Both the position numbers and the translations under genes were made by a program. A stretch of DNA of 32,000 nt from Cylindrospermopsis raciborskii Cr2010 (GTDB lineage Bacteria > Cyanobacteriota > Cyanobacteriia > Cyanobacteriales > Nostocaceae), in contig NZ_CP065936.1 in NCBI RefSeq assembly GCF_003367075.2, positions 2,130,001 through 2,162,000 on the forward strand, written 5' to 3'. The first letter of the stretch is position 1. The number at the start of each line of letters is the position of its first letter. The notes below the pieces were generated by a model. That model had not been told where the DNA came from, did no database searches, and worked only from the letters and a program-made list of their open reading frames with translations. Shown here one piece after another: positions 1,411 to 30,698 of this stretch.

Positions 1411-1413
1411 CAG

Positions 1414-2580: not shown

Positions 2581-2602
2581 TAGCTTAGGTGATATGGGAA
2601 AG

Positions 2603-3247
2603 TTAAGAGTTGCTCACAGTCTCATTGCTACTAAGATGAGCGATCGCCTGTTTAATCCAGTCCTCGGGGTAGGAATTTTTAGGCAAACCGATATCTTCAC
2701 TGATAACATGGAGAGCATGACTAACTTCGTGAGGAGTATAACCCAAGGCAAAAAGTGTCATTTGCACCTCTTCTAAAATAGCTGGTGGTGGACCACCAGT
2801 AGCAACGAAAAACCCTGCTGACTTGCGCCATTCCACCAATTTACCCTTGAGTTCCAAACACAGACGCTCTGCGGTTTTTTTACCCACTCCCGGGGTTTGA
2901 ACTAGCATAGTAGTATTACCGGAAATAATTGCTTGAACTAGTTCTGGTAATTCTAAAGTGTCTATGAGAGCGATCGCCATAGCTGTACCAATACCAGTTA
3001 CAGAAAGTAGATGTCGAAATAAGTCTCTTTCTGCTGGAGAAGAAAAGCCATAGAGTATAGGTAGTTCTTCTCGTATTTGGTAATGGGTAAAAATATGGGC
3101 TACATCACCGTTATTAGTTAACTGATTAGCCAAACGCTGTGGTATGTAGACATCATAGCCAATACCATTGACTTCCAAAGTCAGGATCCAGCGATTGGGA
3201 CTACCAGTTTGCACTCCAGCAACAATACCTTTGAGATAGCTGATCAT
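2603..3247 (-). CDS. ruvA: Holliday junction branch migration complex subunit RuvA
   Basis: 214-aa ORF starting MISYLKGIV. It has helix-hairpin-helix motifs ([20 protein letters not shown]) and typical RuvA length and layout. Confidence 0.9.
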
Positions 3248-3490
3248 TTGATAAATTCCAAGAATACCCCATTATAGTCCCATCCAAAAATTTGCCTTGA
3301 TTTTCCGGGTTGATTGTGGTCTTTTTTTGAATTTTACCTAGTCTCGTGCGCATCTTAACCGCTCATTAATCATTAATTAACCTAATTAAGATAATTTTTT
3401 TTCTAGGACGATTATTTAATTGTTGCCCATAAAAACAGCGTGACACATCAGGTTTAATCAGCAAAAAGTCAGTTATAGAGAGTAAGAAAA

Positions 3491-6400
3491 ATGACAACAC
3501 CAAAATTAACAAGTTATGAATTTAAAAATCTGCCATCATTGGGAACCACAACTACAAACCAGAATATACTTTTAGGGGGATTTTCTGGACTGTATTTCCA
3601 GGGGGTAGCAAATAATGGCAACCTAAAATTTGTCACCCATACAGACAGGGGTCCCAATGGTGAGCCAACAGGACAAAACAGACCTTTTCTATTACCCAAC
3701 TTTCAACCAGAGATAGTCAGTTTTGAACTGGATAAGGCCAGCGGGGAAATTAACATTACCAGTAGAACTAAGCTATTCCGTGCGGATGGTAAAACTCCAC
3801 TGACAGGACTGCCAAACGTACAAGCTGGTGCAGGTAATACAGCTTACACTGACGAGATTGGTGTTGATTTAAATGGTACAGTTTTACCTAATGATCCTTT
3901 AGGTGCTGACTTAGAAGGGATTGTAGTTGCGGATAATGGTGATTATTGGATGGTAGATGAATACCGTCCAGCAATTTATCGTTTTAATAGAAATGGTATA
4001 CTGGTAAGTCGATTTATTCCCCAGGGAACTGCATCCAAGTCAAACCAACCTGTGGGAACTTTTGGCACAGAAGTGTTACCAGAAGTTTATGCTCAAAGAC
4101 GCAATAACCGAGGGTTTGAAGCGGTAGCTTTAGCAGGTAACAAACTATATGCTTTTATTCAAACGCCAATTGATAATCCGGACAGCACGGGGGATACAAC
4201 TTCCAGAGGTTCCCGCAATTTGCGAATTTTAGAATTTGACATAGTTAGCGAAAAGGTAACTGGTGAATATCTTTACCTGTTGGATGATATTACGGGAGCT
4301 GGTAATGCTAAGACTGATAAAATTGGAGATGCGGTTTTCTTGGGTGGTTTTAGGTTTGCAGTAGTGGAAAGAGATGATAGAAGTGATACAACATCAAACA
4401 AACTGATCTATCAGATTGACCTAACTGGTGCAACGAATATTAATGACACTGGTAAACTCGCCTTACCCCAGGGTAAAACCATTGAACAGTTAACCCCAGC
4501 AGAATTAGGCCCTGCTGGTATTATTCCTGTGAATAAGAGTTTGATAGTTAATGCGGCACAAATTGGCTATACAGGCGTGGAAAAATTAGAGGGTTTAGCC
4601 CTAGTTTCAGCCAATACCCTAGCTATAGTTAATGACAATGACTTCATTACCACAATTCCTGAGAAATTAGGAATAATTGAATTACCTAATAATCTGGTCG
4701 AAGTAATTGGCACTGCTAACAAGGATGAGTTATTTGTCAAAAAAGGTGAATATGTACTTGGACTTGATGGAGAAGATATATTAGATGCCAGTGATGGTTT
4801 AGGAAACAACGTCCTGGATGGTGGTGCAGGAAACGATCAACTTTATGCAGGAAGGTCAGATACCTTAATTGGTGGTGCTGGAAATGACCAATTATATGTG
4901 GTGGAGGGTAATAACAACACACTTTATGGTGGTGCTGGGAATGATCAATTATATGTAGCGGAGGGTAACAATAACACACTTTATGGTGAAGACGGAGATG
5001 ATAACCTCTATATCATAGAGGGTGGTAATAATACCTTGAGTGGTGGTGGTGGAGCTGACAAGTTCTATATTGTTAATGGTGCAATTCCCACTGTTCCTAG
5101 TCGGGTTCTAGATTTCACTCGTGGGAATGATAAGGTGATAATTTCTGGTATTAGCCAGATTAAAAGTTTTGATAACCTCATCTTAGACCAGAATGGAGAT
5201 GACACCATTATCAAAACGAAAGATTTGATAGATGGATCTCAAAAGATACTGGGTATTTTGAAAGCGGTCCTTGCCAATACCTTGACAGCGGATGACTTTA
5301 GAATTGACGATAACCGGGCACCGAGCTTTGTTACTACTACTGCTACTTTCTCTACACCTGAAAATACAACTGCGGTGGGAACTATTATCGCCGCTACAGA
5401 TCCAGATGTAGGTGATGTCCTGAGTTATACCCTGGGAGGAGCGGATGCCAGTAAGTTCGACTTTAATGCCACGACACGTGTTCTGAGTTTTAAAACCGCA
5501 CCTAACTTTGAGTCCCCTGGTAGCGCCGCAGGTACTAATGCTTACACCCTAGTGGTGACTGCAACGGATAGCAAAAATGCGATCGCCACTCAAAATATCA
5601 CGGTCAATGTCACGGATGTGGATGACACCGCCCCCGTTGTAAACGCCAACCAAACGTTCTCCTATGCAGAACGTCAAGTGGCCAACTTCCAAGTGGGAAC
5701 GGTCACAGCTACCGATGCAGTAGGAGTCACAAACTTTGCGATCGCATCTGGAAATAATTCCGGGTTCTTTGCCATTAGTAACAGTGGAGTAATTACCCTC
5801 ACAGCAGCAGGTGCAGCTGCATCAGCCGCGTCCAATGACTTTGAGACTACTCCAAATACGTTTACACTGGGAATAACTGCTAGTGATGCTGCCAACAACA
5901 CCTCTTCTCCTGTAAACGTGACCATCAACGTCACGGATGTGGATGATAATCAAACACCCAATGTATCAGGAACATTTAATATCATTGCTACAGATGGCAT
6001 TCTCACAATAGAAGAAAAGAATGCGGGAGTAACTTTAAGTGGTACAGTAAGCGATCAAAAAGCACAGGTGACAGTTCAATTTGGGGGACAGATCAGGCTT
6101 GCCAATGTGATTGGTACGAACTGGTCTTATAAGCTAACTAGTAACGACTATAACTTCTTCAAAGAAGGGTCAAATCAACTAACTGCTATCTTCACCCTTA
6201 ATAATGTAACCCCCCAGTTTAAGAGTTCCCAGACCCTAACCATTGGTACGGGGGTACTGCCATCACTTGGCAGTCCCACCTTAGATCCCACCCAACCAAA
6301 GGGTATTAGTGCAGAAGTTACTCAAAAAGCACAATCAGCAAATATTGGTCAAGGTATTCTAGGAACTCAAGAAAAGTTAACAGATCCGAACATTGTAGTT

Positions 6401-15532: not shown

Positions 15533-16660
15533 TTACATATCTTTCTGCAGTGAAAATACTGGGTAATCAGTATAACCTTTTTCTCCGCCTCCATAAAAAG
15601 TTGCTCGTTCGTAGGGAGTTAGGGGGTGGTTTTCTCTCAAACGTTCAACTAAATCAGGATTAGAAATATAGAACCTGCCAAAAGCTACTGCATCAGTTTT
15701 ATGCTCCGCAATTGCCAATAGAGCTTCTGCACGATTATACCCGCCCGACGATATTAGCTTTGTACCTAGGGAACCAGCTTGGATAATTGGACCAAATAGA
15801 ACAGCGGTGCTGGGCGCACTTTCATCGGTTTTATCACTACCACCAGCACTGGTAGAACGTGGTTCAATCAAATGAATATAAGCAAGACCCACATTGCAAA
15901 TCCCTTCAACAACATAGCGGAAAAGATTTACAGGATCGCTGTCCTTCATATCGTTGAAAGTGCCATAGGGAGATAGACGGACCCCCACCCTACCCTTACC
16001 CCAGATTTTGACACATCTTTCAATCACCTGAAAAAGTAATCTAGCTCTATTTTCCACCGACCCACCATACATATCCACGCGTTGATTACTGCCATCTTGG
16101 AGGAACTGATCAAGTAAGTAACCATTAGCACCATGAATTTCCACACCATCAAAACCTGCTTGTTGAGCGTGCTGAGCAGCAAGCTCATATTGATTCAAAA
16201 GATGGGCAATTTGAGTGGCACTGAGAGAGCGAGGTGTTTCAAAAGGAACTTGCTTACCACTACTAGTTAAAGTATTACCTTGGGGAGTAATAGAGGAAGG
16301 TGCCCAGGGAGCTTGACCATCGGGTTGGAAAGAAGAGTGGGAAATTCTGCCCACATGCCATAATTGGAGGAAGATTCTTCCCCCCCTTTCATGAACAGCT
16401 TGTGTTACCAGCGACCAGCCATTAATCTGTTCAGGACTGTGGATTCCAGGAGTAGCAGGGTATCCTTGACCTTCGGGGATGATCTGAGTTGCTTCGCTGA
16501 TTATCAGACCTGCACTAGCTCGTTGTTGATAGTAGGTTGCATTTAGTGCAGTGGGGATGTTACCTGGTTGGTGACTGCGCATCCTGGTTAGCGGAGCCAT
16601 AATTATCCGATTAGGGATATTTAGTTCACCCAGGGTGAGGGAATCGAAAAGACTGGTCAT
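15533..16660 (-). CDS. Old Yellow Enzyme family NAD(P)H:flavin oxidoreductase / alkene reductase
   Basis: 375-aa ORF with PNRIIMAPLTR, LWHVGR and HGANGYLLDQFL motifs, characteristic of OYE/NemA-like enzymes. Confidence 0.9.
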   Translation of the reverse strand: MTSLFDSLTLGELNIPNRIIMAPLTRMRSHQPGNIPTALNATYYQQRASAGLIISEATQIIPEGQGYPATPGIHSPEQINGWSLVTQAVHERGGRIFLQLWHVGRISHSSFQPDGQAPWAPSSITPQGNTLTSSGKQVPFETPRSLSATQIAHLLNQYELAAQHAQQAGFDGVEIHGANGYLLDQFLQDGSNQRVDMYGGSVENRARLLFQVIERCVKIWGKGRVGVRLSPYGTFNDMKDSDPVNLFRYVVEGICNVGLAYIHLIEPRSTSAGGSDKTDESAPSTAVLFGPIIQAGSLGTKLISSGGYNRAEALLAIAEHKTDAVAFGRFYISNPDLVERLRENHPLTPYERATFYGGGEKGYTDYPVFSLQKDM

Positions 16661-16873: not shown

Positions 16874-17611
16874 ATGGCTACCTTGACTGAACTACCCAAA
16901 ACCCTAGAAGAAGCAATTGCCCAATCCCGTGCAGCGGTAAGATCGGCTTTGTCTGATGGTAAAACGCGAATACAGGTAGAGTTGCTTTTCCCAGAACTGC
17001 AATTTATGCCAGTCGCTGAACAATTTCTCCCCCTATTTACCGAATATGAATCTCGTCTCAAGGTGTTTTTTGCTGATGCGGGTGCTGCTGCTTTAGCTCG
17101 TCGAGATTGGGGTGATATACCCTTCAAAATTATGGATATCGGTACGGGAAGAGCTGCTTCTTCAGAATCAAAAATTCAACCAGAGGATGAAATTTTCTTG
17201 TTTATAGCTCCCACATCAGTGGAAGTAGCTCAATTGGAAAAACTCTGTCAAATTATCGGTGAACGTCCTTTTGTGATGTTAAATCCTCGGTTGGAAGACT
17301 CTAGTGTGGTGGGTATTGGTTATGCTGCACGGGAAACCCGCAGGCGTTTTATTAGTACCATTGAATCTTGCTATTATCTACGTCCTATTGATGAACAAAG
17401 CGCCCTCATGCGTTCCTATCCTGGAAACTGGGAAATATGGTTGGAAACCGATGGTGAGTACCAGAAAATTGCTGAACTACCTCAAAAACCTTCTGGAGAT
17501 GAGATAGACTCAATTTTAATCAAGGGACAACCAGAAACCGGGATCACAGCAAGCAAAAAGCCTACTGTGTTTAAAAGCTTACAAAGATTCATTAAGGCTT
17601 TAAGTAGTTAG
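16874..17611 (+). CDS. DUF1995-like conserved cyanobacterial/plastid protein
   Basis: 245-aa ORF. The pattern (LP.TLEEA..Q...A...AL..G..R..VEL) recalls DUF1995 proteins. The assignment is from memory only. Confidence 0.6.
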   Translation: MATLTELPKTLEEAIAQSRAAVRSALSDGKTRIQVELLFPELQFMPVAEQFLPLFTEYESRLKVFFADAGAAALARRDWGDIPFKIMDIGTGRAASSESKIQPEDEIFLFIAPTSVEVAQLEKLCQIIGERPFVMLNPRLEDSSVVGIGYAARETRRRFISTIESCYYLRPIDEQSALMRSYPGNWEIWLETDGEYQKIAELPQKPSGDEIDSILIKGQPETGITASKKPTVFKSLQRFIKALSS

Positions 17612-17625
17612 TACGCAAAGCTTAA

Positions 17626-19260
17626 TTATAACATTCGGACTAACGAATTATATACAAGTCCCAGCGATGCTAACACTAGCAGTAACGGCATAATCCAGTC
17701 ACCAAATCGCACATACAAGGTTTGGGTTTGAAGTGGATAAATAGTTTCTGCATGAGTTTCATAAACATTATATCCCGACTTCCATAAGGTTTTACCATGG
17801 GGATCCACAAAAGCTGAGTAACCTGTGTTGGTAGACCTAACTGCCCACCTATCTGTTTCAATTGCTCTCATTACATCCTGGGCATGGTGTTGATCCGCCA
17901 TTGCTGCTGTGTAATGAGCATCATTGGATGAACTTAAAATAAATTCTCCCCCATTCTTAGCTTGGTATCTAAATATTTCTGTAAAAGCAGATTCATAACA
18001 AATACCAACAATTGCTCTACCTAATGGAGTATCAAAAACTTGTTGTTTAGCGCCGTGTATTTGGTGTTCATCCAGAGGTGATAGTCTTTTAACTAAATTG
18101 CCAAAAATCTCGGCAAAAGGCACAAATTCACCCAGGGGAACTAGTTTAGATTTATCATATCTGCTGGTAATTTGTCCCTGACTATTGATATTAAATAAAC
18201 TATTGGTGTAGCTCGTTCCAGTTCTGCCAAAACCCCCTATCCAGACCACCACTCCTTTTTGTTTAACTGCATCCAACAGGGGTGTATTAGGCAAGTTCTT
18301 ATCGTATAATGGCAAAGCACCTTCAGGGGTTAATACTCCGTCTACTCCTTGATTTGCTAGGTTGATATAACCATTAGTATAACCTGTAATTGCTTTGGTA
18401 AATCCTTGGGGAAGCAATTTGATTTCATTGGGGATGTTACCTTGAATAATCCCTATTTTTAAACCCGAATTTTGACGATTATTCAGTGGTTGAGAATATG
18501 GCTGGAAATATAGGATTGATCCTAAAATATGGGAGACAATTAATAAAATAACTGCTGAAATAGAATATCTATTAATCAACCCTATCACTACTTTATTAAA
18601 CCTAGTGACTCCATTCCATTGTTTGCCTGTACTGATTAATTCTCTTTTTTTCTGATTTTGCCATATCCATGCTTCACCTATTAGTCCATTAACAGCTACA
18701 ATTACTGCTGTAATGGTATTAGGACCAGAAAGTTGCCCCAAATGCAAAAGTGCTAGATTGTACGGGGACTGTGTGTAAGATAAAGAACTCCACCATAGGG
18801 AACCTGTACTCCACCAACTTTCTAATCCGCACCACAAAGCTGTACCGATTAAAACTCGTAACCAGGGTTTTTGGCGATTTAACCTAACCATCAAAAATGC
18901 CCATAGTCCGACTAATAATGCTCCCCACAAGGTAATGAATGACCAACAAAAGATGGTAATTAATAAACTTGGCCACCAGGGAACATTTAACCAATTCATG
19001 GGGTGAATACCTGTAATCCATGATAAAGCTATTCCATGATAGGCGATCGCCCACCAGCAAGCTGAGGGGAGGGATTTTCGAGTATATTTTACCACGATTA
19101 CCCATAATGGAGCCAGGGCGATCCAGGCTAGAAACCAAGCATTGACAGGAGCAACGGTGACTCCCATCAAAATGCCACTACTTAAAGGTACTATATAGAA
19201 AAGTATAGGTTTTAACTTTTCTTGTATTTGTTTACTCGGACTCTTCACCATCTCCAGCAT
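17626..19260 (-). CDS. lnt: apolipoprotein N-acyltransferase
   Basis: 544-aa ORF. The N-terminal half is polytopic membrane. The C-terminal half is a CN-hydrolase domain with a Glu/Lys/Cys triad context (LTPEGALP, YDKSKLVPLGE, VGICYESAF). Its first 225 nt lie inside the left copy of the 328-bp repeat. Confidence 0.85.
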   Translation of the reverse strand: MLEMVKSPSKQIQEKLKPILFYIVPLSSGILMGVTVAPVNAWFLAWIALAPLWVIVVKYTRKSLPSACWWAIAYHGIALSWITGIHPMNWLNVPWWPSLLITIFCWSFITLWGALLVGLWAFLMVRLNRQKPWLRVLIGTALWCGLESWWSTGSLWWSSLSYTQSPYNLALLHLGQLSGPNTITAVIVAVNGLIGEAWIWQNQKKRELISTGKQWNGVTRFNKVVIGLINRYSISAVILLIVSHILGSILYFQPYSQPLNNRQNSGLKIGIIQGNIPNEIKLLPQGFTKAITGYTNGYINLANQGVDGVLTPEGALPLYDKNLPNTPLLDAVKQKGVVVWIGGFGRTGTSYTNSLFNINSQGQITSRYDKSKLVPLGEFVPFAEIFGNLVKRLSPLDEHQIHGAKQQVFDTPLGRAIVGICYESAFTEIFRYQAKNGGEFILSSSNDAHYTAAMADQHHAQDVMRAIETDRWAVRSTNTGYSAFVDPHGKTLWKSGYNVYETHAETIYPLQTQTLYVRFGDWIMPLLLVLASLGLVYNSLVRML

Positions 19261-19363
19261 CGGGGGGAACCACTGCTACTCCAGTAATTGCGTCATCTTC
19301 ATCTAGTTTTTGCACTCTCACACCCGTAGCTGTGCGGGACTGGATGGAAACGCATTGATTGAC
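19036..19363. repeat. left copy of long direct repeat (duplicated gyrA-3'/lnt-5' junction)
   Basis: Base-by-base comparison with 21409-21737 (offset 2373) shows identity except G/A at 19156/21529 and CG versus TGG at 19351-19352/21724-21726. Confidence 0.95.
19261..19363 (-). pseudogene. gyrA 3'-terminal fragment (duplicate, non-functional)
   Basis: It encodes ...[38 protein letters not shown], identical to the end of gyrA. It has no upstream gyrA body and a 1-nt deletion near its upstream (5') end, next to the cassette junction. Confidence 0.9.
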
Positions 19364-19370
19364 CTACAAG

Positions 19371-20606
19371 TTATTTTAGGACATCCTCAGTCTCCATATT
19401 GAACTCAATGTGACTTTGTAAAACTATTTCCTCAATCACTAAATTTCCTTTGTCTTGTTGCAAGACCAAATTAAATCGACGTATTAGTTCCGGAATATTT
19501 ATAACTTCTTCTATGGATTCCATATATCTCTTGACAATAGCTTTAACACTATATTTTGCGACGGCTTGCTGCTGAATCTTATATAAGATTTCCTTTGATG
19601 TTTGTTCAGTTTTAACAACAAATGTTATGGGGTATCTTTGTACTTTATCAATGTCTAAAAAGTACTTTCCAACATCAACAGTTTCTGTTATTTGAAAAAA
19701 TCTTCCAAGAGGTTTCATTACAAAATCTATACCTCCATCATTTGCATTTGTGCGACCTGTTTTATACAAAATTAGGTATTCAGCATTTATATTATCATAT
19801 GACCATCCCCAGTAAATTTTTTGATCACCATAGTATTGCTTTAAAATCGCATAACTGACAATTTCAAAAATTCTTGCATCGATATTTGGCTTCAATAAGC
19901 TTTGGATGAATTCCAAATATTCAGCTTGGGTTTGAAGTTGCATATTGATCATTCGTTTACAATACATAATGAAGTCAGTAAATGAATTTACCCGTGCATG
20001 TACATAAGCATCAATTATATCTTTTACGGACTGAGCAATATTTATCTGATTCCCATTAACTAAAATTTTAATAAGATTTTCGTTAATCCAATATCTGCTG
20101 GTTTTAGTATCCCTTATTATAGGCACATAGGGTATTGTCGGAAAGTATTTCTTGAATTCTTGATTCAGGCGATGATTTAAAGCGTGATTTTGAAGTTTAT
20201 TACCAAATGGTAGTTCTCTTTGTCTGCGAAAAAGGTTCACAAACTGGGCACCTTGATAATCTTCATACCCCCCATTAATATGAAATTTATGATTGAGATA
20301 GTCTTCGACTAAAACATAAACTGCATAATGATTTGCCAATCCTGCTCGCGATTTTGAACCTCGATTAGCAGCTTGTGTTTTAATGTTTAGATATTGTAAT
20401 AACTCACTAGAACTCAAAACTATAATCCCCTGATCTGGAAAGTGGTAGTTCAGAATTTCAACAATTTTTTCGGTGAATTCATGCTGTCGTGTCAGCATCA
20501 AAGAGACCTCTCTGGATAACATTTGTTTTGTGTCTTTTTTGATTCTTACTAACATAATTCTTCGATGGGGGTAATAGTTTTTCTCCCTTATATTCTTTCC
20601 ATCCAA
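19371..20606 (-). CDS. putative restriction endonuclease / unknown partner of the methyltransferase
   Basis: Longest ORF is 411 aa. The likely real start is one of the internal Met codons at 20555, 20522 or 20498, which gives 375-394 aa and still overlaps the MTase 3' end by at least 20 nt. I recognise no family. There is a weak PD-(D/E)xK-like pattern (FEIV ... NDGGIDFV ... FFQITE). Confidence 0.5.
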   Translation of the reverse strand: MDGKNIREKNYYPHRRIMLVRIKKDTKQMLSREVSLMLTRQHEFTEKIVEILNYHFPDQGIIVLSSSELLQYLNIKTQAANRGSKSRAGLANHYAVYVLVEDYLNHKFHINGGYEDYQGAQFVNLFRRQRELPFGNKLQNHALNHRLNQEFKKYFPTIPYVPIIRDTKTSRYWINENLIKILVNGNQINIAQSVKDIIDAYVHARVNSFTDFIMYCKRMINMQLQTQAEYLEFIQSLLKPNIDARIFEIVSYAILKQYYGDQKIYWGWSYDNINAEYLILYKTGRTNANDGGIDFVMKPLGRFFQITETVDVGKYFLDIDKVQRYPITFVVKTEQTSKEILYKIQQQAVAKYSVKAIVKRYMESIEEVINIPELIRRFNLVLQQDKGNLVIEEIVLQSHIEFNMETEDVLK

Positions 20607-21372
20607 GAATTCTCCTTAACCCAATCTTAAGATATTCTTCCTGAGATTCTATACTAATGGAATTTCTTCCTAACCTTTTGGCTACACAAGCAGAAGTGAA
20701 AGTTCCCGCAAATGGGTCAAGAACAATATTGGACGCATCACTACTGGCAAGAATAATCCTTTCTAACAAAGACTCAGGTTTTTGTGATGGATGATTTTCG
20801 TATTCTTCCATCCGATATCTCACTCGGGGAAAATACCATACATTGCCTGGCACTTTCTCACTATTATATTGTCTAGGAACGGTTTTTCTATAGTCAATTA
20901 ATTTTCGTTTTGCACCAGTTTTCGCCTCTATCTTAATATCATCTGAATTGAAAATATAATTACCTTTATCCTTAACACAATAAAGGATTGGCTCATACAT
21001 TGAGCCAAAGTATTTTGTTGCTTGAACTCCGGAACTGTCGTAATGCCATACTATCCTACTGAGAATGGTCATAGTTTTTCTCAGGTAAAGATCAAAATAT
21101 GGCATGGCCTGAGTGCTTGCCATAACATACATACTTCCATTAGGTTTTAATACACGTATACACTCTTTAAGTATATTGTACACCCATGTCGCATATTTAT
21201 CTTCAGATTCCCACTTGTCATAAAAATTTGAAAAACGTTTTCCTATATTATAGGGGGGATCAACAAAAATAAGGTCCACAGACTGAGAAGCAACCTGATT
21301 CGACAACGTGCTTAAAGCATCACCATGAAATAAAATGTGACCACCATGCTCGTAACGTTCAATGTTCATCAT
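20479..21372 (-). CDS. beta-class DNA methyltransferase, probably N6-adenine (N4-cytosine not excluded)
   Basis: 297-aa ORF. Motif IV (DPPYN, in VDLIFVDPPYNIG) lies near the N-terminus and the SAM-binding motif I (VLDPFAGTFTS) near the C-terminus, which is the beta-class circular permutation. Confidence 0.9.
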   Translation of the reverse strand: MMNIERYEHGGHILFHGDALSTLSNQVASQSVDLIFVDPPYNIGKRFSNFYDKWESEDKYATWVYNILKECIRVLKPNGSMYVMASTQAMPYFDLYLRKTMTILSRIVWHYDSSGVQATKYFGSMYEPILYCVKDKGNYIFNSDDIKIEAKTGAKRKLIDYRKTVPRQYNSEKVPGNVWYFPRVRYRMEEYENHPSQKPESLLERIILASSDASNIVLDPFAGTFTSACVAKRLGRNSISIESQEEYLKIGLRRILGWKEYKGEKLLPPSKNYVSKNQKRHKTNVIQRGLFDADTTA

Positions 21373-21402
21373 GTCAATAATATTCTTTCTTGCTGAACTA
21401 CT

Positions 21403-21633
21403 TCACTGATGATAGGCGATCGCCCACCAGCAAGCTGAGGGGAGGGATTTTCGAGTATATTTTACCACGATTACCCATAATGGAGCCAGGGCGATCCAGG
21501 CTAGAAACCAAGCATTGACAGGAGCAACAGTGACTCCCATCAAAATGCCACTACTTAAAGGTACTATATAGAAAAGTATAGGTTTTAACTTTTCTTGTAT
21601 TTGTTTACTCGGACTCTTCACCATCTCCAGCAT
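21403..21633 (-). pseudogene. lnt 5' fragment (75 native codons + Gln + stop)
   Basis: The 76-aa ORF is identical over 75 residues to the N-terminus of the full lnt at 17626-19260. It terminates just past the repeat boundary. Confidence 0.9.
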
Positions 21634-21737
21634 CGGGGGGAACCACTGCTACTCCAGTAATTGCGTCATCTTCATCTAGTTTTTGCACTCTCACACCCGT
21701 AGCTGTGCGGGACTGGATGGAAATGGCATTGATTGAC
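21409..21737. repeat. right copy of long direct repeat (native gyrA end + lnt start)
   Basis: See the left copy. This copy supplies the functional 3' end and stop codon of gyrA. Confidence 0.95.
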
Positions 21738-24208
21738 TGACGGATGATTATACCACGATTAGTAGCCATCATGATTTCTTCATCAGGGTTAACTATACGC
21801 AAAGTTGCTAGTTGGTCTTTGGTTTTGCGGTTTTTGAATTTCGTCGCTGTAAGTCCCTGACCTGCTCGGTTCTGAAGTCTAAATTGTCCCACTGGCACTC
21901 GCTTACCATAACCTCCTATAGTGATAATTAGTACCCATGGACCTGAGATATTAGCTGGCTCACCAGTAGCTATCTCAATATTAGAGGTTTCTTCAATATT
22001 TTCGCTGAGTTCCTCAACTTCCGTGAGTTCTTCTTCCATTTCTGTATCTGTATTCAAGGTGTTAAGAATTGCAGCAGGCAATATGTCCATACCAATCAAT
22101 TCATCTCCCGTTTTCAGTTTCATGGACTTAACTCCACGGGTAGCCCTACCTAGGGGACGCATTTGATCATTATCACAGCGGAAGTGAATGGCCATTCCCT
22201 GTCTTGAACCAATCATGACACTATCTTCCGGTTTAGCTCGTCTTACCCATCGTAGTTGATCTCCCTCTTCTAGGGATATAGCTATTAATCCATTAGCGCG
22301 AATATGGCTGAATGCTTCCAAGGCGGTTTTTTTGATGTTACCCCCCTTAGTCAGCATAACTAAATATTCTTCACTGCTAAATTCGCTTACAGATACAATT
22401 GAGGTAATTTTCTCTTCCTTGGGTATGGGTAACATCTGAACAATGGGTGTACCCCTGCTAGTGCGTGAACCCTCTGGTACTTGATAGGCTTTAAGACTAT
22501 ACACCACACCCCTATCACTAAAAAATAAAACACTGTCATGATCACAGCAAGTTAGGAAATGCTCAATAGTATCATCATCCTTAACTTTAGCTCCTGCTTT
22601 ACCTCTGGTAGCTCGATTTTGCGCTTCAAAGGTGCTGACTGGCATCCGCTTGATGTAGCCTTGCTGCGTCAGCAGAATTAAAACCTTTTCATTGGCGATT
22701 AAATCAATATCATCTATTTCCCCTTCTGCATGGGTAATAGTTGTGCGTCTTGGTGTGGCAAACTGGGTCTTAATTTGCCCAGCTTCAGTCTCGATAATTT
22801 CTAGTACCCTTTCCCGTCTGTCTAAAATATCCCGTAGGTCAGTAATTTGCAACTGCAATTCTTCGTGTTCCAAGCGAATTTTATCTGCTTCTAAAGCTGT
22901 TAATCTTCGTAACTGCATCTGTAGTATCGCATCTGCTTGAACCTCTGATAGACCATAGCTATTAATTAATTCTCCTTTGGCAGTGGGGGCATCTGGAGCA
23001 CTTCTAATTAGATTAATAATTGAATCTAAATGAGCAAGCGCAATTAATAAACCCTGTAATAAATGGTCTCTTTCCTCAGCCTTTCTGAGTTGGTAACGAG
23101 TACGTCTATTAATTGTTTCTATGCGAAAATCCAGAAAGACCGTGAGAAAATTCTTGAGAGTTAGTATTTGAGGTTCTCCATTTACCAAAGCCAACATATT
23201 GGCACCAAAATTGGTTTGTAACGGAGTTTGTTTATAAAGGTTATTTAATACTACACGAGGATAGGAATCGCGTTTTAGTTCAATAACAATGCGCATACCA
23301 TCGCGATCGCTCTCATCTCGAATGTCCGCAATTCCGTCAATTTTCTTATCATTAACCAACTCAGCGATTTTTTCAATTAATGCTGCTTTATTAGTTTGGT
23401 ACGGTAATTCAGTAATAATGATTGCTTCTCTTTCCGGTCGGTTACGTTGCTGAATGGTTTCAATTGTAGCCACACCCCGCATGGTAATTGATCCTCTACC
23501 GGTGGTGTAAGCCTCCTTAATGGCTGATGTTCCTAGAATTTGCGCCCCTGTGGGAAAATCGGGACCGTGAACATACTGCATTAACTGAGTATCTGTTATT
23601 TCCGGATTATGAATCAGTGCTACCAATCCATCTATCAGTTCTCCCAAATTATGGGGAGGAATATTAGTCGCCATTCCCACAGCAATTCCCGAGGAACCAT
23701 TGAGTAGTAACTGGGGAATTCGGGAAGGTAAAACCGTTGGTTCTTGTTGGGAACCATCGAAGTTATCAATAAAATCAACAGTTTCCGACTCAATATCTTG
23801 TAACAGAGAGGAACTGGTTAAAGCTTGAAGACGACATTCCGTATATCGCATCGCTGCTGGTGGATCATTGTCAATCGATCCAAAGTTCCCATGACCATTA
23901 ATCAGAGGCGATCGCATGGAAAAATCTTGTGCCATTCGCACCAGAGCATCATATACAGCGGTGTCACCATGGGGGTGATATTTACCCAGTACTTCCCCCA
24001 CCACACGAGCGCATTTTCTGAAGGGGCGATCATGTAATAAACCTAGTTCGTGCATAGCATAGAGGATGCGGCGGTGTACAGGTTTAAGACCATCCCTAGC
24101 ATCTGGTAGCGCCCGACCGACAATGACGCTCATAGCGTATTCTAGGTAAGATTGTGACATCTCTTGTCGTAAATCGGTCGGGATAATCCTCTCCTGTGAG
24201 GTTGTCAT
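21605..24208 (-). CDS. gyrA: DNA gyrase subunit A
   Basis: 867-aa ORF with [17 protein letters not shown], the active-site AAMRYTE, C-terminal beta-pinwheel repeats and an acidic tail. Confidence 0.95.
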
Positions 24209-24705
24209 AGACTTTAAAACTCCAAAAATCCTAGATTTTAACCTGGTTAGTTGACAAAATGCAAAATTACTTCCAACTAATTTTGAAAAGTTGTCATGTT
24301 TCAGCTATAATTCTAACACATTGTTGCTAAAACTTGTGGTCAAAATGGCTCAACCCAGATATTATATCACTAAACATCATCAAAGGGTAATAATAAACGA
24401 TAGGGAATAGTTAAGAGCGAACATGGCATAAGAATAGGTGTAGCCCATGGGTCGGAAAAACCCTATATTTACTTTTCGTTAATTTTAACCGTATAATTTC
24501 GGAATGTAGAGTTTATTAAGAGTTTATAATTAGAATGTTGTTCTATAGGAAATTGAGTTTTAATGCCAGGAAAAGTCCCAGTTAAACAAACAGTTCTCCT
24601 GGCTAGTATAGAGTTGGGAGGGTGAATACACTACATTTCACCAAAAAACATGCTATGTAAGTTAATCTTAAATGATAGAACCTGAGTATTTTTCTTTCCC
24701 CATCC

Positions 24706-25614
24706 ATGTTACCAGTCATCTATTCTCCGGAATTTTTAGACCATCAAACTGGGAGCTATCACCCAGAAAGACCAGAAAGGTTAACAGCAATTGTCCAGTC
24801 TTTGAAAACGGCAGAATTTGCTCAGAAAATCCGGTGGTTATCTCCCACCCCGGTTAATCCCCAGTTAATGTCTTGGATAGAAATGGCCCATAGTCCGAAT
24901 TATATTCATAAACTGGCACAGATAGCTGGTCGAGGAGGCTATTTGGATGGAGATACTCCCATCTCTCCCCGTAGTTATGATATAGCTTTATTAGCCGTCA
25001 GTGCCTGGTTAGATGGGATAAATCAGGTATTGATTGAGAAAAATCCCGCTTTTGTGTTGGCACGTCCACCTGGACACCACGCCGAAAGTAGTATGGGTAT
25101 GGGATTCTGTTTATTGTCTAATGCTGCTATTTCTGCCCTATATGCTTTAAAACAACCAGGAATTAATCGAGTTGCCATTTTAGACTGGGATGTACATCAT
25201 GGCAATGGTACCCAATCCATAGTGGAGGGCTATCGAGAAATTGCCTATTGTTCCCTACATCAGTATCCTGCTTATCCAGGAACAGGGAAAGCTACGGAAA
25301 CTGGCTTCCATCAAAATGTTTTAAATTTACCCTTGGCACCCGGTAGTGATATTAATGATTATCAACCCCTATGGAAATCTCAAATCCTACCGTTTTTAAA
25401 AAGTTTTAACCCCGATATATTAATTATTAGTGCTGGTTATGACGCAGTAGAAAATGATCCCCTGGCCAGTATCCGGTTGCAACCGGAAGATTTTGGCTTA
25501 TTTACTCAGTATTGCCTAAGCGTTACCCGAAAAATTCTCTTTGGTTTAGAAGGTGGTTATGATTTGGAATCCTTGTCTAAATCAGTTAATGCTACCATTG
25601 CTGCTTGTCTATGA
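24706..25614 (+). CDS. histone deacetylase family protein (AcuC/acetylpolyamine amidohydrolase-like)
   Basis: 302-aa ORF with RPPGHHAE, DWDVHHGNGTQ and SAGYDA motifs of the class I/II Zn-dependent deacetylase fold. Confidence 0.85.
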   Translation: MLPVIYSPEFLDHQTGSYHPERPERLTAIVQSLKTAEFAQKIRWLSPTPVNPQLMSWIEMAHSPNYIHKLAQIAGRGGYLDGDTPISPRSYDIALLAVSAWLDGINQVLIEKNPAFVLARPPGHHAESSMGMGFCLLSNAAISALYALKQPGINRVAILDWDVHHGNGTQSIVEGYREIAYCSLHQYPAYPGTGKATETGFHQNVLNLPLAPGSDINDYQPLWKSQILPFLKSFNPDILIISAGYDAVENDPLASIRLQPEDFGLFTQYCLSVTRKILFGLEGGYDLESLSKSVNATIAACL

Positions 25615-25849: not shown

Positions 25850-26017
25850 ATGACCACCTATATTTTCTTCGACAGGGCCCTATATATGTTAACTAATGCC
25901 TATTTACTTTCGGTAATTGCTTTAATTCTGCTTTCTAGTATAGGTTTGGCACTGATTGAAACCATCGAGAAAACAGCAGAACATTACAGCAGTTTTCATG
26001 TAAATAAACCACAATGA
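25850..26017 (+). CDS. small hydrophobic ORF whose 3' end now runs into the IS630 terminal repeat
   Basis: My own translation gives MTTYIFFDRALYMLTNAYLLSVIALILLSSIGLALIETIEKTAEH + YSSFHVNKPQ, with one predicted TM-like stretch. It is below the 60-aa cut-off of the track. Coding status is unproven. Confidence 0.3.
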   Translation: MTTYIFFDRALYMLTNAYLLSVIALILLSSIGLALIETIEKTAEHYSSFHVNKPQ

Positions 26018-26373
26018 TTGAACCAATTAAGCGCATCCTCTGCTGTAATATAATTTACTGCACTTGTCATGGCCTCATTTAGGGCTTCTAATGTTCGTGC
26101 CTCCCGACTACGGAGAAATTGCTTTAATTTTGACCAACACAATTCTATCGGAGATAAGTCTGGAGAATAGGGGGGTAAAAACTTAACTTTTGCACCGACT
26201 GATTCAATTGACAATCTCACGCGCTCGGCATAATGAACCTTTAAATTATCCATAACAACAATAGCCCCTTTCCATAATTGAGGTACTAAAACCTGATTTA
26301 CATAAGTGAGAAATACTTCTGTATTTGTGCTTCCCTCTACAGTCATTGCTGCCAGAATTCCATCCATATTTAA
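25996..26373 (-). pseudogene. IS630-family transposase, C-terminal fragment
   Basis: The fragment ...LNMDGILAAMTVEGSTN...VVMDNLKVH...PYSPDLSPIELCWSKLK carries the second Asp and the Glu of the DDE triad. It is in frame with the upstream fragment across the ATTTAA duplication. Confidence 0.85.
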
Positions 26374-28572
26374 CCCACATTCCGCACCCTCAACTATCGG
26401 GGAGGGAAATTACTGAGATAAAAATCAAAGTTAGCATAAAAATAAACATAGAGAGTGAAAAAAGCATTCGAGAAACAGTAAATCAGCAAAAATGTCATCA
26501 AAATCTATTCTCAATAAGCAGCAATAAGAATTCACATTACCCAGAGAGGTGAACAAATAAATAAAATTAAGATATTCAAGGTAAAATCATAAAATAGACT
26601 AATTTTTCCAGGGTAAAAACAAGATTATAGACATAGCAAAATGGAGCTGTAAATCAAATAGCTCATTTAAACATGATAAATTAAATTGATAGAGACAATA
26701 ATTAAGTTACTAATCGATAGTAACGTAAACAATCATTTGGCAAAAGATTCAAGATAAAATCTCTATCTTTAGTCCAATTAGAGACTTGTTTTTCATTGTT
26801 ATATTCAACTAAATGAATACCCTGAAAGCATTGAAAAATCCAGCGTAAAGTAGGGCGGTTAGTTAGTTTACCTAATTGGTCTTTAATTGTTGATTTAGAC
26901 TCTCTGAGTGCGGCTCTAATTTCACGTTGAGCCAAAGTATAAACCAGTAAACATAAACCCATAATCATCCCCATTGACTCTATTCTTTTAGGACTTTTGA
27001 GGAAAATACTGTCTGCAAAAAATAATGGGTCTTTGAGAAAACGAAACCCTCTTTCACAACACTGCTGGGCTTTATATTCACTGAGCATGGAATCATTGCT
27101 CAGTTCCTTTGAATCCAAAACATTAGTAGCAATAATAAAACGTCCCGCACTCAGGGATTCTCTATTAATTTTACGTTCATCTTCCGAGACTTTTGCTAAT
27201 ATTTGATAGGATGTTTCTCCTGAACTATCTTTTTTATTAGATTTGACTTGAGTAACTGTACTCTCGTTAATTTTATGATATTTGAACTGTTTTGATAATT
27301 TTGATAATGCCTTGATAGCATCTGCTTCACAAGCAAATTCTTCTTGTGATAATTTTCTCAAATCTTGCACGGCTTTTGATTCTGATTTGATAATTTTTTG
27401 GGTGAGCTTACGCAAGTCTGATTCTCTCCTCTCTTGACTTTGCACTACTAACCATCTTTGTTCTATTCCGGCATAATTTTCTATTTTTGATGCTAGTTTA
27501 TATCCTGGTATTGTACTATCAATAAATTCTGATTCTGGTATTGTTAAGATTAATGATTTTGCCGCTTTTATACTTACTGGTACTCGACACAGCCAAGATA
27601 ATTCTGACATCATTTTCAGGTTTGATTCTGTATATAAAGCCGAATCAGCCACCATAAGACTATTAACTTCTAATTGTTTTTGATATTCTACTGCTATTTG
27701 ACCAAAACATGATGAATCTACTTGGTTGCCCGATGCTAGTTTTAAAAATATTGGCATGTCTCCATCTCCCGAACATATCATTTCTATAATGAATTGTTTT
27801 AAGTCTGGACGATGGTCACGAGAATAACCATAACTAATAGTTATTTCTTTTGGTAATTTCGCTGTCATTTCCTCTAATTCTTGGTTATCTCCTATTTTTT
27901 GACTCTCAAATATTACTTCTTGTAAGCTAGTGTTATACTTCCCATGTACGTGCATTGATGATGAGTCTAGATGTGATGTTGATAGTGATACTCCAAATTT
28001 TTGGGCAGCTTTTACTGCGATGATAAAAAAGATTGTACTCAATCCTTTTTCAAACATCTTATCCATGACTCTCCCCAGTTTATCATCGTTGAGATATTCT
28101 GGTTTTACTCCTGCTCCTATTAGATGTTCACAGGCTATTGTTTCAAAATATTCAGGAAACATATATAACGGTTTTGAGACAAATCCTAACCCGTTTATTA
28201 TCATGGCTTTTACTACTTGACCTGCATTTACTTTTTCGTCTTTTTCGACTCCTATCAATTCATTTATTATTTCCACTATTCCGATTGAATCTATTATTCC
28301 TGCTACTATCCCTAGATGGTCTATATTCTGAATTTCTATTTCTTCACTTTTTAATTTCACAACAGTTTCCTCTACTATTTCTGTTGCAATCAATTATTTC
28401 TTATTTGGTTATCAATTCTCTTTTTTGTTACCAAACTTTACTTTCTCACACCATGTCTCTATTAATGCTATTTATTCTCATTAAGCCCTTTAATCCCTGA
28501 ATTAATTTTAGTTATTATGTACTACATTAGGATCCTCTTTGATCTGTCACAGCTTAGGGTGCGGAATGTGGG
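26374..28572 (-). mobile_element. IS1634/IS4-type insertion sequence nested in the IS630 element
   Basis: Perfect 17-bp terminal inverted repeats: CCCACATTCCGCACCCT at 26374-26390 and its complement at 28556-28572. It is flanked by the direct 6-bp duplication ATTTAA (26368-26373 and 28573-28578). Length is 2199 bp with one long transposase ORF. Confidence 0.9.
26702..28393 (-). CDS. IS1634-family (IS4-related) DDE transposase
   Basis: 563-aa intact ORF. The N-terminal NIDHLGIVAGIIDSIGIVEIINE segment is typical of IS1634-group transposases. The family call is from memory. Confidence 0.85.
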   Translation of the reverse strand: MIATEIVEETVVKLKSEEIEIQNIDHLGIVAGIIDSIGIVEIINELIGVEKDEKVNAGQVVKAMIINGLGFVSKPLYMFPEYFETIACEHLIGAGVKPEYLNDDKLGRVMDKMFEKGLSTIFFIIAVKAAQKFGVSLSTSHLDSSSMHVHGKYNTSLQEVIFESQKIGDNQELEEMTAKLPKEITISYGYSRDHRPDLKQFIIEMICSGDGDMPIFLKLASGNQVDSSCFGQIAVEYQKQLEVNSLMVADSALYTESNLKMMSELSWLCRVPVSIKAAKSLILTIPESEFIDSTIPGYKLASKIENYAGIEQRWLVVQSQERRESDLRKLTQKIIKSESKAVQDLRKLSQEEFACEADAIKALSKLSKQFKYHKINESTVTQVKSNKKDSSGETSYQILAKVSEDERKINRESLSAGRFIIATNVLDSKELSNDSMLSEYKAQQCCERGFRFLKDPLFFADSIFLKSPKRIESMGMIMGLCLLVYTLAQREIRAALRESKSTIKDQLGKLTNRPTLRWIFQCFQGIHLVEYNNEKQVSNWTKDRDFILNLLPNDCLRYYRLVT

Positions 28573-28578
28573 ATTTAA

Positions 28579-29150
28579 AGCCCCAATCAGAGAAATATTT
28601 TTGCCCTTGTTTCCTGGTACGCTACCAATTGCTCTTTGTCCATCTTGGCTTCTGGCAAACAACCTTGACATCCCTAAATTTATCCCCGATTCATCTAAAA
28701 ACACTAAATTTCTAATATCAACTGTATCTACCCAACGACGATAATCATGCCTTAATTCTTGAACACGTGGAGTCTCCTGTTCACTGGCATTTAGACTTTT
28801 TTTTTATGACGTAGACCCAACTTTTCTAAGGCTCGATGCATGGTTGTGATACTAACACTAGTGCCCGTCGTTTCTCTCAGGCGATCGCACAATTCTGAAA
28901 GTAGTAAATCATTTTTCTCATCCAGCCAAGACTTGATCATGTTTAAATATTGGCCTGCAATTACAGGCTTTTCATATCCTCCACATTGCTTTGGCTCAAC
29001 TTGCCCAGTTTCACGATAACGACGTACTAAATTTCTCACAAATGATAAGCTGACCTTGAATCTTTCTGCCAACTGGCGTTGAGATCCCTCTTGAGCAACC
29101 CATGCTACAATCACGCGATTACGCAAATCTATTGAATAAGGTTTTGGCAT
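28579..29150 (-). pseudogene. IS630-family transposase, N-terminal part (HTH domain, then -1 frame continuation to the first DDE Asp)
   Basis: Frame 0 (29150-28791) gives MPKPYSIDLRNRVI...LGLRHKKKV*. After an A9 run (28797-28805), the -1 frame continues as SLNASEQETPRVQELRHDYRRWVDTVDIRNLVFLDESGINLG...KNISLIGALN up to the nested-IS junction. Confidence 0.8.
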
Positions 29151-29342
29151 ATAATTTGACAGTACTTCTACTCTATTTTAGTTTATTACCCTTATTATAG
29201 CTTATCTTATTTTGTAGTTTAACTACATGAAAATTGCTGTAAATTTAGCTCAATACTAAATCCCAGCTAGATATATTGGGAAAGTGGATACATGATATTG
29301 TATGATCAACGCAATTAACTGCTGGTTATACCCCTAGTCCCT

Positions 29343-30698
29343 ATGACTGTTACGGCCACTTTGTCCCAATTAGCTGCTGTTCTCTCAGCTTCTCTCGTAA
29401 ATATACCTTCATCCAGCCTTTCTCAAATTATTGTGGGTATTCAAACAGATACCAGGGTGTTGCAACCGGGTGAAGTTTTTCTAGCCCTAGGAGGTGAAAA
29501 ATTTGATGGACACCAGTTTGTCGAAATGGCGATCGCCCGAGGTGCTGTTGCTGCTATTGTAGATTATACTTACAATTATCATAATTTACCTGTAATAAAA
29601 GTATCAAATACTTTAAATGCATACCAGGAACTGGCTAAATGGTGGAGAGGTCAGTTTGGGATTCCTGTAATTGGAGTGACTGGGTCAGTGGGGAAAACCA
29701 CAACCAAGGAGTTAATTGCAGCGGTATTGGGGACAAGAGGAAAAGTTCACAAAACCCATGGAAATTTCAATAATGAAATTGGTGTTCCTAAAACCTTGTT
29801 GGAATTATCTCAGGGGGATGATTTTGCTGTGATAGAAATGGCTATGCGAGGGAGAGGGCAAATTGCAGAACTAACCCATATCGCTAAACCGAATATAGGT
29901 GTAATTACTAATGTGGGAACAGCACATATTGAATTACTAGGTTCGGAACAGGCGATCGCTGAAGCTAAATGTGAGCTATTGGAGGAAATGTCTAATGATA
30001 GTGTGGCGGTTCTTAACTATGATAATCCCCTATTAATGGCTACTGCTAAGCAGGTGTGGTCGGGTGAAGTAATTACTTATGGATTTTCTGGAGGAGATAT
30101 TCAAGGGAAGTTAGTGGATTATCAAAAGATAGAGGTAGGGGGAATGACTTTACCCCTACCCCTAGCTGGAGTTCATAATGGGAGTAATTTTTTAGCAGCA
30201 CTAGCAGTGGCTAAAGTATTAGGTGTGGATTGGAAACTGTTAGAAGCTGGAATAAACGTGACTATGCCACAAGGGCGATCGCAAAGTTGGAAGTTGCCCA
30301 GGGACATTATGATTTTAGATGAAACCTATAATGCTGCACCAGAAGCAATGTTAGCAGCTTTAGAGCTATTGGCACAGACTCCTGGAAGGAGAAAAATTGC
30401 TGTTTTGGGTGCTATGAAGGAATTGGGGGAAAGATCTACTAAACTGCATCAACAAGTGGGGGAAACAGTGAAAAAATTGAACCTGGATGGTCTATTAGTT
30501 TTAGTTGATAGTCCAGATGCAGAAACAATTGCTACTAGTGCTCAGGGGATACCCTGCGAACGTTGTCATAACCATAGTGATTTGGTTTCCCTGTTAAAAA
30601 CCTACGTACAACCAGGCGATCGCTTATTATTTAAAGCTGCTCATTCCGTTGGATTAGAAAAAGTTGTTCAGCAATTCTGCGGGGAGATAAATTCTTAA
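29343..30698 (+). CDS. murF: UDP-N-acetylmuramoyl-tripeptide--D-alanyl-D-alanine ligase
   Basis: 451-aa ORF with the Mur ligase P-loop GVTGSVGKTTTKE and typical MurF layout and length. Confidence 0.9.
   Translation: MTVTATLSQLAAVLSASLVNIPSSSLSQIIVGIQTDTRVLQPGEVFLALGGEKFDGHQFVEMAIARGAVAAIVDYTYNYHNLPVIKVSNTLNAYQELAKWWRGQFGIPVIGVTGSVGKTTTKELIAAVLGTRGKVHKTHGNFNNEIGVPKTLLELSQGDDFAVIEMAMRGRGQIAELTHIAKPNIGVITNVGTAHIELLGSEQAIAEAKCELLEEMSNDSVAVLNYDNPLLMATAKQVWSGEVITYGFSGGDIQGKLVDYQKIEVGGMTLPLPLAGVHNGSNFLAALAVAKVLGVDWKLLEAGINVTMPQGRSQSWKLPRDIMILDETYNAAPEAMLAALELLAQTPGRRKIAVLGAMKELGERSTKLHQQVGETVKKLNLDGLLVLVDSPDAETIATSAQGIPCERCHNHSDLVSLLKTYVQPGDRLLFKAAHSVGLEKVVQQFCGEINS

Follow-up and report, generated by a model that had tools for sequence, protein, structure and literature searches.

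A restriction-modification (R-M) unit of two genes was found between gyrA and lnt, two overlapping genes of the cyanobacterium Cylindrospermopsis raciborskii Cr2010, and the locus raises the question of how such a unit, which is not accompanied by any mobility gene, could have entered a gene overlap while both target genes stayed intact. The unit lies in a stretch of 32,000 nucleotides (NZ_CP065936.1, positions 2,130,001 to 2,162,000 of the forward strand; GCF_003367075.2), which is referred to here as the window and to which all coordinates apply. An earlier note, made from the sequence alone, had read the locus as an insertion accompanied by a long target duplication. The analysis reported here indicates that insertion with long target duplication very probably brought the R-M unit into the gyrA-lnt junction in a single capture, with later spread by recombination and decay of the endonuclease gene. 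Insertion of R-M units in this manner was reportedly described by Nobusato et al. in 2000, and its mechanism has been unsolved since it was first described in Helicobacter pylori.

Organisation of the gyrA-lnt locus

The unit is bounded by direct repeats at 19036-19363 (328 nt, minus strand; the downstream or D copy) and 21409-21737 (329 nt, minus strand; the upstream or U copy), which differ at 3 positions. The first difference is a substitution, 19156 G versus 21529 A (ACC versus ACT, both threonine in lnt), and the second difference is CG at 19351-19352 versus TGG at 21724-21726; the repeats had been described with these limits and differences in the earlier note, and the description was confirmed. 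A match of 328 nt at 99% identity is far beyond what chance could produce, and the segment was found in two copies in the 32-kb window and in one copy in each of the empty loci described below.

Each repeat copy was found to be a native gene junction, as had been proposed, in which the final 133 nt of gyrA run into the initial 225 nt of lnt through an overlap of 29 nt. The gyrA gene (21605-24208, minus strand; 867 amino acids) is whole only through the U copy, while lnt, encoding apolipoprotein N-acyltransferase (17626-19260, minus strand; 544 amino acids), is whole only through the D copy. GyrA was identified by PF00521, PF03989 and the NCBIfam gyrA equivalog (1185 bits), and the protein from the window is identical to GyrA of C. 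raciborskii Cr2010; Lnt was identified by TIGR00546 (253 bits), PF20154 and PF00795. In the U copy the gyrA 3' end is functional and the lnt 5' fragment is dead; in the D copy it is the gyrA 3' fragment that is dead and the lnt 5' end that is functional, with 104 nt of native sequence retained upstream of the latter. The dead lnt fragment forms an open reading frame (ORF) of 76 amino acids (lnt'; 21403-21633, minus strand; PF20154 LNT_N) which reads across the junction and ends in AYHQ, at a stop codon situated two codons inside the inserted DNA; in several Cylindrospermopsis genomes it is annotated as "hypothetical protein". A copy-specific scar, comprising a 1-nt deletion and a substitution, was located in the D copy at 19351-19352, 12-14 nt from the junction with the inserted DNA, while the U copy at this position is the same as the single copy of the empty-site genomes.

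Owing to the 29-nt overlap, gyrA and lnt could not both survive a plain insertion. The 328-bp duplication rebuilds the 3' end of gyrA on one side and the 5' end of lnt on the other, and the overlap of the target genes makes the need for a duplication obvious.

The inserted DNA (the cargo; 19364-21408, minus strand) is 2045 bp in length and contains only a methyltransferase gene (M) and an endonuclease gene (R), in the order 36 nt, M start codon, M, R, R stop codon, 7 nt. The genes gyrA, lnt', M, R and lnt are all on the minus strand. The GC content of the cargo was 0.340 and lay below that of the window (0.399), of gyrA (0.428) and of lnt (0.391), in agreement with its earlier description as an AT-rich insert of two genes.

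Characterisation of the inserted genes

The M gene (20479-21372, minus strand) encodes a beta-class N6-adenine DNA methyltransferase of 297 amino acids with a DPPY motif. The protein was matched over its full length by PF01555 (E=3e-56), as well as by the NCBIfam model PRK11524 (the YhdJ equivalog; 484 bits against a cut-off of 292) and by PADLOC MTase_II. Motif IV (DPPY) precedes motif I, with VDLIFVDPPYNIGK near the N-terminus and DPFAGTFTS near the C-terminus, and a protein of identical sequence is among those annotated for other genomes of C. raciborskii.

The R gene (19371-20498, minus strand) encodes a Type II restriction endonuclease of 375 amino acids when read from the ATG at 20498, with alternative starts at 20522 and 20606. 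It was matched by the PADLOC REase_II model PDLC03455 (E=2.6e-188), while Pfam and PDB sequence searches returned no match. The family comprises more than 6000 homologues and is very conserved, many of its members being named 'restriction endonuclease' in their source records. M was observed directly upstream of R, in the same orientation, in 73 of the 80 metagenome loci, the remaining 7 contigs beginning too near R for M to be visible. The start of R overlaps the end of M by 20 nt, and the same overlap is found in Nostoc PCC 7120 (locus L120) and in L122, a metagenome-assembled genome (MAG) discussed below. Identity to the pair of Nostoc PCC 7120, a strain with AvaIII-type activity, was 75% for M and 71% for R.

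It was concluded that the cargo is a minimal Type IIP R-M unit, in which a YhdJ/AvaIII-like M gene is followed by R. The earlier note had proposed a recently acquired selfish or defence unit, and its reading of a methyltransferase/nuclease unit was upheld; the recency of the unit is considered with the divergence data. YhdJ is known to methylate ATGCA*T (PMC9239280), and the recognition sequence of the present unit, judged from its family, is probably ATGCAT (AvaIII/NsiI type).

Empty and filled sites

The earlier note had suggested that close relatives be searched for an empty site with a single copy of the 328-bp segment and overlapping gyrA and lnt genes, and such sites were found. A scan for Lnt using one genome per species returned 18 Nostocales loci, of which 15 extend upstream of lnt. 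gyrA lies directly before lnt in all 15 loci that reach that far, and the R-M unit was absent from all 18. The empty outgroups include Sphaerospermopsis, Anabaena, Dolichospermum, Trichormus and Calothrix. A single copy with the 29-nt overlap of gyrA and lnt was found in Raphidiopsis brookii D9 (L007), which is the most divergent member of the genus, in R. curvata NIES-932 (L105) and in the C. raciborskii loci L106-L111; the single-copy sequences include the C. raciborskii assemblies GCA_002893185.1 and GCA_002893155.1 and four Logan contigs. The single copy of the empty site aligns with both repeats of the window.

At least 8 other assemblies were filled; the insert in them has the same limits (positions 1-2045 of the cargo) and lies between two copies of the repeat. 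Three of them are closed chromosomes, namely CP060822.1 (C. curvispora GIHE-G1), CP073250.1 and CP091284.1, and the filled sequences also include contigs of the CR12 type and several metagenome contigs which span both copies; the presence of two repeat copies, for which confirmation by long reads had been advised, was thus established. The D-copy scar was present in every filled strain and absent from all U copies and all empty sites. Since the boundaries and the scar are the same in all filled strains, the arrangement is the result of one insertion event and not an artefact. The scar marks a single ancestral event, which would place the capture of the unit once in the C. raciborskii lineage, and it may be a trace of the joining reaction itself.

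Search for mobility functions

Domain searches found no transposase or integrase in the insert and repeat searches found no terminal inverted repeats at the ends of the cargo, as the earlier note had observed by eye. The window contains no tRNA or tmRNA, and no Rfam family was detected in positions 17000-25000. The cargo has no attC-like element, as the stop codon of R is followed by 7 nt and then by host sequence, and no promoter was found in the cargo leader. No DNA similarity was detected outside the ORFs between the window and either L122 or L025-L031; since the ends of the cargo have no similarity to those of homologous units elsewhere, the unit has no defined element termini. A phage vehicle was also sought, and no match was obtained in 50,697 phage records.

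A number of candidate explanations were rejected on this basis. A transposon, an insertion sequence (IS) or a miniature inverted-repeat transposable element (MITE) was discarded as there are no inverted repeats and no short duplication of fixed length (328, ~400 and ~140 bp at the three loci compared below), an integrase-mediated genomic island as there is neither an integrase domain nor a tRNA or tmRNA target, and an integron gene cassette as there is no attC site at the 3' end, unlike in L095. The start of the cargo and the left target breakpoint have the sequence TCAGT in common, a junction microhomology which is too short to be given weight.

A HIP1 palindrome (GCGATCGC) is present at 19043-19050 and 21416-21423, 7 nt from the junction, and the position given for it in the earlier note was correct. 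Any role as a recombination signal was rejected: sites in the window are on average about 1.8 kb apart, and in 13 other cyanobacterial loci with this R-M family HIP1 was not systematically close to the unit, being near both ends in L025 only. Its location near the repeat edge is probably due to chance. Within the M-R units themselves a single HIP1 site was counted across the 13 cyanobacterial loci (L025-L069), compared with one per 0.7-6.5 kb in host DNA, a scarcity which is consistent with a foreign origin of the units.

Homologous units at other loci

The earlier note had asked whether the cargo is again flanked in other genomes by long duplications of unrelated targets, and two such cases were identified for homologous units. 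The closest homologue outside the genus is in the MAG L122 (R 77% and M 79% identical), where the M-R unit occupies 2156 bp between direct repeats of 407 nt with 91% identity, in the 5' region of smc. In L101, a block containing a homologous M-R pair has on either side ~140 nt from the end of a thiolase gene (the 3' end, with the stop codon). Gene ends doubled around the unit, as seen in the filled loci L122 and L101 alone, are the expected signature of insertion with long target duplication. The same R-M family is accordingly associated with target duplications of ~400, 328 and ~140 bp in three unrelated targets.

The smc locus has a more complex structure. At L122:1989-10414 there are four copies of the start of an smc gene, all in the same direction (95-98% identity), of which the 407-nt repeat is one. 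They separate three blocks of cargo: an ORF of 262 amino acids of unknown type, the AvaIII-like M-R pair, and a block comprising an HTH gene, a C5-methyltransferase, an NgoBV-like endonuclease and a ParE-like pair. This looks like a series of insertions with long target duplication which have been stacked at one gene start.

Repeats were also observed beside relatives of the unit in other settings. In Nostoc PCC 7120 (L120:6226-7389; BA000019.2) an ORF of 104 amino acids and a ParE-like gene lie between direct repeats of 179 nt (94% identity). These repeats correspond to the beginning (5' end) of a NACHT/NB-ARC gene, the N-terminus of whose protein is copied by an upstream ORF of 56 amino acids, and the module adjoins the AvaIII-like R gene; it would be a toxin-antitoxin-type module with long target duplication. 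In L095 (positions 49-4889) the M-R pair and an adjoining BsuBI/PstI-type system are each enclosed by copies of one repeat of 52 nt, the three copies of which are 96-98% identical and, like integron attC sites, have an internal palindrome and TAAC...GTTA ends. A metagenome contig of 6704 nt (L064:1-6704) carries a homologous M-R pair and has identical ends of 123 nt, which is consistent with a small circular replicon of 6.6 kb. The R family was also found on plasmids of other phyla, including small enterobacterial plasmids whose annotation names it a type II restriction endonuclease. Flanking repeats in L054, L057, L075, L079 and L088 were set aside, as they look like dispersed repeats and not like target duplications.

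Comparison with described systems

The term 'insertion with long target duplication' was defined by Furuta, Abe and Kobayashi in 2010 (PMC2853133) for cases in which R and M are located in an insert of <20 kb, the repeats are >30 bp, an empty site is present in a relative and there are no mobility genes. Repeats of 46-423 bp were described from many phyla in that study, including a duplication of 88 bp in Microcystis aeruginosa NIES-843, so that there is a cyanobacterial precedent, of which the earlier note was not aware. The repeats often span start or stop codons, such that the target gene stays intact, and insertion into operon-like clusters was also described; as a mechanism, the authors suggested double-strand breakage and a cycle in which the unit is inserted, amplified and released (PMC2853133).

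The gyrA-lnt locus has homologues of R and M in an insert of 2045 bp, repeats of 328/329 nt and an empty site in relatives, with no linked mobility gene, tRNA or inverted termini. The C. raciborskii unit resembles the published inserts in that M and R stand alone in a small insert which is AT-richer than the host, that the repeat spans gene ends and the insert interrupts an operon-like pair, and that 328 bp falls within the range of 46-423. It differs from them in its host (Nostocales, C. raciborskii) and in its target, a 29-nt overlap of gyrA and lnt which needs the duplication. It also differs in the population-level evidence of one origin, recombinational spread and R decay, and in the recurrence of the pattern, for one R-M family, in three unrelated targets. 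The locus is a clean further example of an already described insertion mode and not a new kind of element.

Three other types of system were compared. A likeness to the Type IIP systems of the AvaIII/NsiI/EcoT22I type and to the orphan methylase YhdJ is suggested by the score of M above the YhdJ equivalog cut-off. ATGCAT is not specifically avoided in the C. raciborskii genome region, and the specificity and activity of the unit are predictions from its genes. Campbell-type (suicide-vector) integration gives the same product, an insert between direct repeats which can be reversed by recombination, whereas the C. raciborskii cassette has neither a vector backbone nor evidence of a natural circle. 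In integron R-M cassettes, as in L095, the M-R pair is compact, without a promoter and placed between attC-like repeats of 52 nt; the cargo of the window, in contrast, has no attC-like element and its flanking repeats are host gene sequence.

Divergence, recombination and decay of R

Cargo copies from the filled strains fell into two groups, up to 0.93% apart, while the flanks diverge from those of D9 by 2.4-4.7%. The cargo of L112 and that of L114 are 0.00% divergent over 2045 bp, with flanks that differ by 1.6% and 2.9%. The upstream flank of the filled locus L116 is 0.5% from that of the empty L106 and 1.6% from that of the filled L118, and the downstream flank of the window is 0.77% from that of the empty L105 and 1.4-2.2% from those of the filled L112-L117. 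Filled and empty alleles were interleaved on both flanks, and flank divergence did not follow presence or absence of the unit. Mosaic flanks, together with identical cargo on differing flanks, imply that either the cassette or its flanks have been exchanged between lineages, and the pattern of alignments indicates that the cassette was spread or lost by homologous recombination.

Polymorphic sites within the repeat are common to the U and D copies of one strain (TT/TT in L113, CC/CC in the window), which suggests gene conversion. Loss by recombination between the repeats, which would leave no trace, is plausible.

The R gene has decayed in several strains. In sister strains that are otherwise 99.7-100% identical (L001, L003 and L124), a segment of ~277 bp corresponding to 19640-19916, with 3-nt microhomology, is deleted, leaving an R remnant of 198 amino acids and an intact M gene. 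Another strain has an R remnant of 174 amino acids, and in strains of the CR12 type 8 bp are deleted from the 3' end of M. The contig L002, from another sample, begins exactly at the edge of the R deletion, which suggests that both R variants coexist in that sample.

The insertion is recent only relative to the genus, as it is shared by diverged lineages, its cargo copies are up to 0.93% apart and R is decaying; the claim of recent acquisition made in the earlier note was not sustained in any stricter sense.

Origin and spread of the unit

Under the reading favoured here, a single capture followed by recombinational spread, a foreign linear fragment would have been joined at both ends, without homology or a recombinase, to target ends each carrying the same 328 nt. 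Such ends could have arisen through a staggered break with fill-in, or the joining could have been to two chromosome copies of a polyploid cell. The event would have been kept by selection, as gyrA and lnt both stayed intact. The flanking repeats would then have acted as built-in homology, by means of which RecA-type recombination could have spread the cassette between strains and probably removed it from some, with excision tolerated mainly after R had become defective. As the unit is co-oriented with gyrA and lnt and has only 36 nt of its own upstream DNA, M and R would most likely be transcribed by read-through from gyrA, and the 20-nt overlap would couple their translation. M would methylate ATGCAT and R would cut unmethylated ATGCAT, the expected outcome being phage defence and post-segregational killing (addiction).

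Several points weigh against this account or parts of it. The joining mechanism is a proposal at both junctions, and a circle carrying the 328-bp segment would yield the same product by a single crossover. The empty C. raciborskii alleles may be ancestral or may be derived by excision. Read-through is deduced from the lack of an obvious promoter, and the ATGCAT specificity from family membership. A nuclease fold of R, for example PD-(D/E)XK, is putative: the best Foldseek matches of its AlphaFold model (pLDDT 76) include Cap4 and the restriction enzymes PspGI, MspJI, Ecl18kI and Kpn2I, none of them with E<0.2. ATGCAT was observed 2 times in the window compared with 11.6 expected from dinucleotide shuffles, but measured against pentamer composition the site is not depleted beyond prediction (3.5 expected; rank 21st of 64 palindromic hexamers), and the pentamer-based result is alike in empty-site strains; avoidance of ATGCAT as a test of specificity or age was dropped as uninformative. 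The two ATGCAT sites of the window are at 28836-28841 and 29617-29622, one of them inside the strain-specific IS described below.

The alternative that survives best, although it is rather unlikely, is a Campbell-type origin, in which a circle of ~2.37 kb (the cargo with one 328-bp segment) was integrated by a single homologous crossover. The topology of the locus is exactly that of a single-crossover integrant, secondary spread between strains would fit, and the scar is at the cargo-proximal end of the D copy, which would be donor-derived in that model. Draft assemblies also give the cassette as a cycle of 2373 bp, in the form of L128 (2451 nt, with an exact terminal overlap of 78 nt) and L129 (2388 nt, with an overlap of 15 nt). 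These contigs were rejected as a physical circular form, since a flanking repeat that is collapsed in a de Bruijn graph gives the same contigs. Moreover, the first circle would itself require two illegitimate joints, and a circular intermediate explains the spread of the cassette better than its origin.

A filled ancestor of the entire Cylindrospermopsis/Raphidiopsis clade, from which all empty sites arose by precise excision, is improbable. Recombination between the repeats would restore the native junction without a trace, and the interleaving of filled and empty alleles on the flanks would be accommodated, but the outgroups and D9 are all empty. The diversity of the cargo (≤0.93%) is also well below the divergence of the flanks from D9 (2.4-4.7%), and the repeats of the window differ at only 3 positions.

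Mobilisation of the cassette as a non-autonomous element by a transposase or integrase supplied in trans was judged to be very improbable. IS elements are common in these genomes, and a nested IS is present in the window at 25984-29242. It is an IS630-like element with terminal inverted repeats of 31 nt, the transposase of which is in two parts (HTH, 28791-29150; DDE_3, 25996-26367), as the element is split by a second IS encoding a DUF4277 protein of 563 amino acids (26702-28393). This nested IS was absent from L001 and from all other filled strains examined and is 4.2 kb from the cassette; being strain-specific and at that distance, it cannot explain the insertion, and it is the only IS nearby. 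Furthermore, the cargo has no inverted or defined termini, 328 bp far exceeds any known transposase stagger, and the length of the duplication is not fixed in the three independent cases (~400, 328 and 140 bp). Finally, an assembly artefact, in which one junction was falsely doubled around a misplaced contig, is scarcely conceivable: short-read assemblers do break or cycle at these repeats, but both copies are spanned by several metagenome contigs as well as by three closed chromosomes, the copy-specific differences are fixed in every strain, and neither gyrA nor lnt would be complete if the duplication were not there.

As an extension of the favoured reading of a single capture with later recombinational spread, it is put forward speculatively, and with more doubt than conviction, that the long target duplication is a working part of a recombinase-free mobility cycle in which the repeats serve as portable homology arms. 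A fragment consisting of repeat, cargo and repeat, or an excised circle of 2.37 kb, could install the cassette in relatives that share the gyrA-lnt junction. Such a route may serve small selfish modules in cyanobacteria generally, examples being the ParE-like pair of Nostoc PCC 7120 and the L122 stack.

Implications and neighbouring genes

The gyrA-lnt locus provides a natural system in which filled, empty and R-defective alleles are available in one culturable, bloom-forming species, and in which a defence cassette that has no mobility gene moves between strains, apparently through homologous recombination. DNA methylation and the barriers to phage and foreign DNA are probably not the same in filled and empty strains. 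There are hints that the same insertion route serves other small selfish modules in cyanobacteria. The cyclic contigs of 2373 bp in draft assemblies could pass for a small plasmid.

A further presence/absence difference in this region concerns a gene for an Old Yellow Enzyme-type oxidoreductase (15533-16660), which lies downstream of lnt in the window and was not present in L106 and L107, two of the empty C. raciborskii loci.

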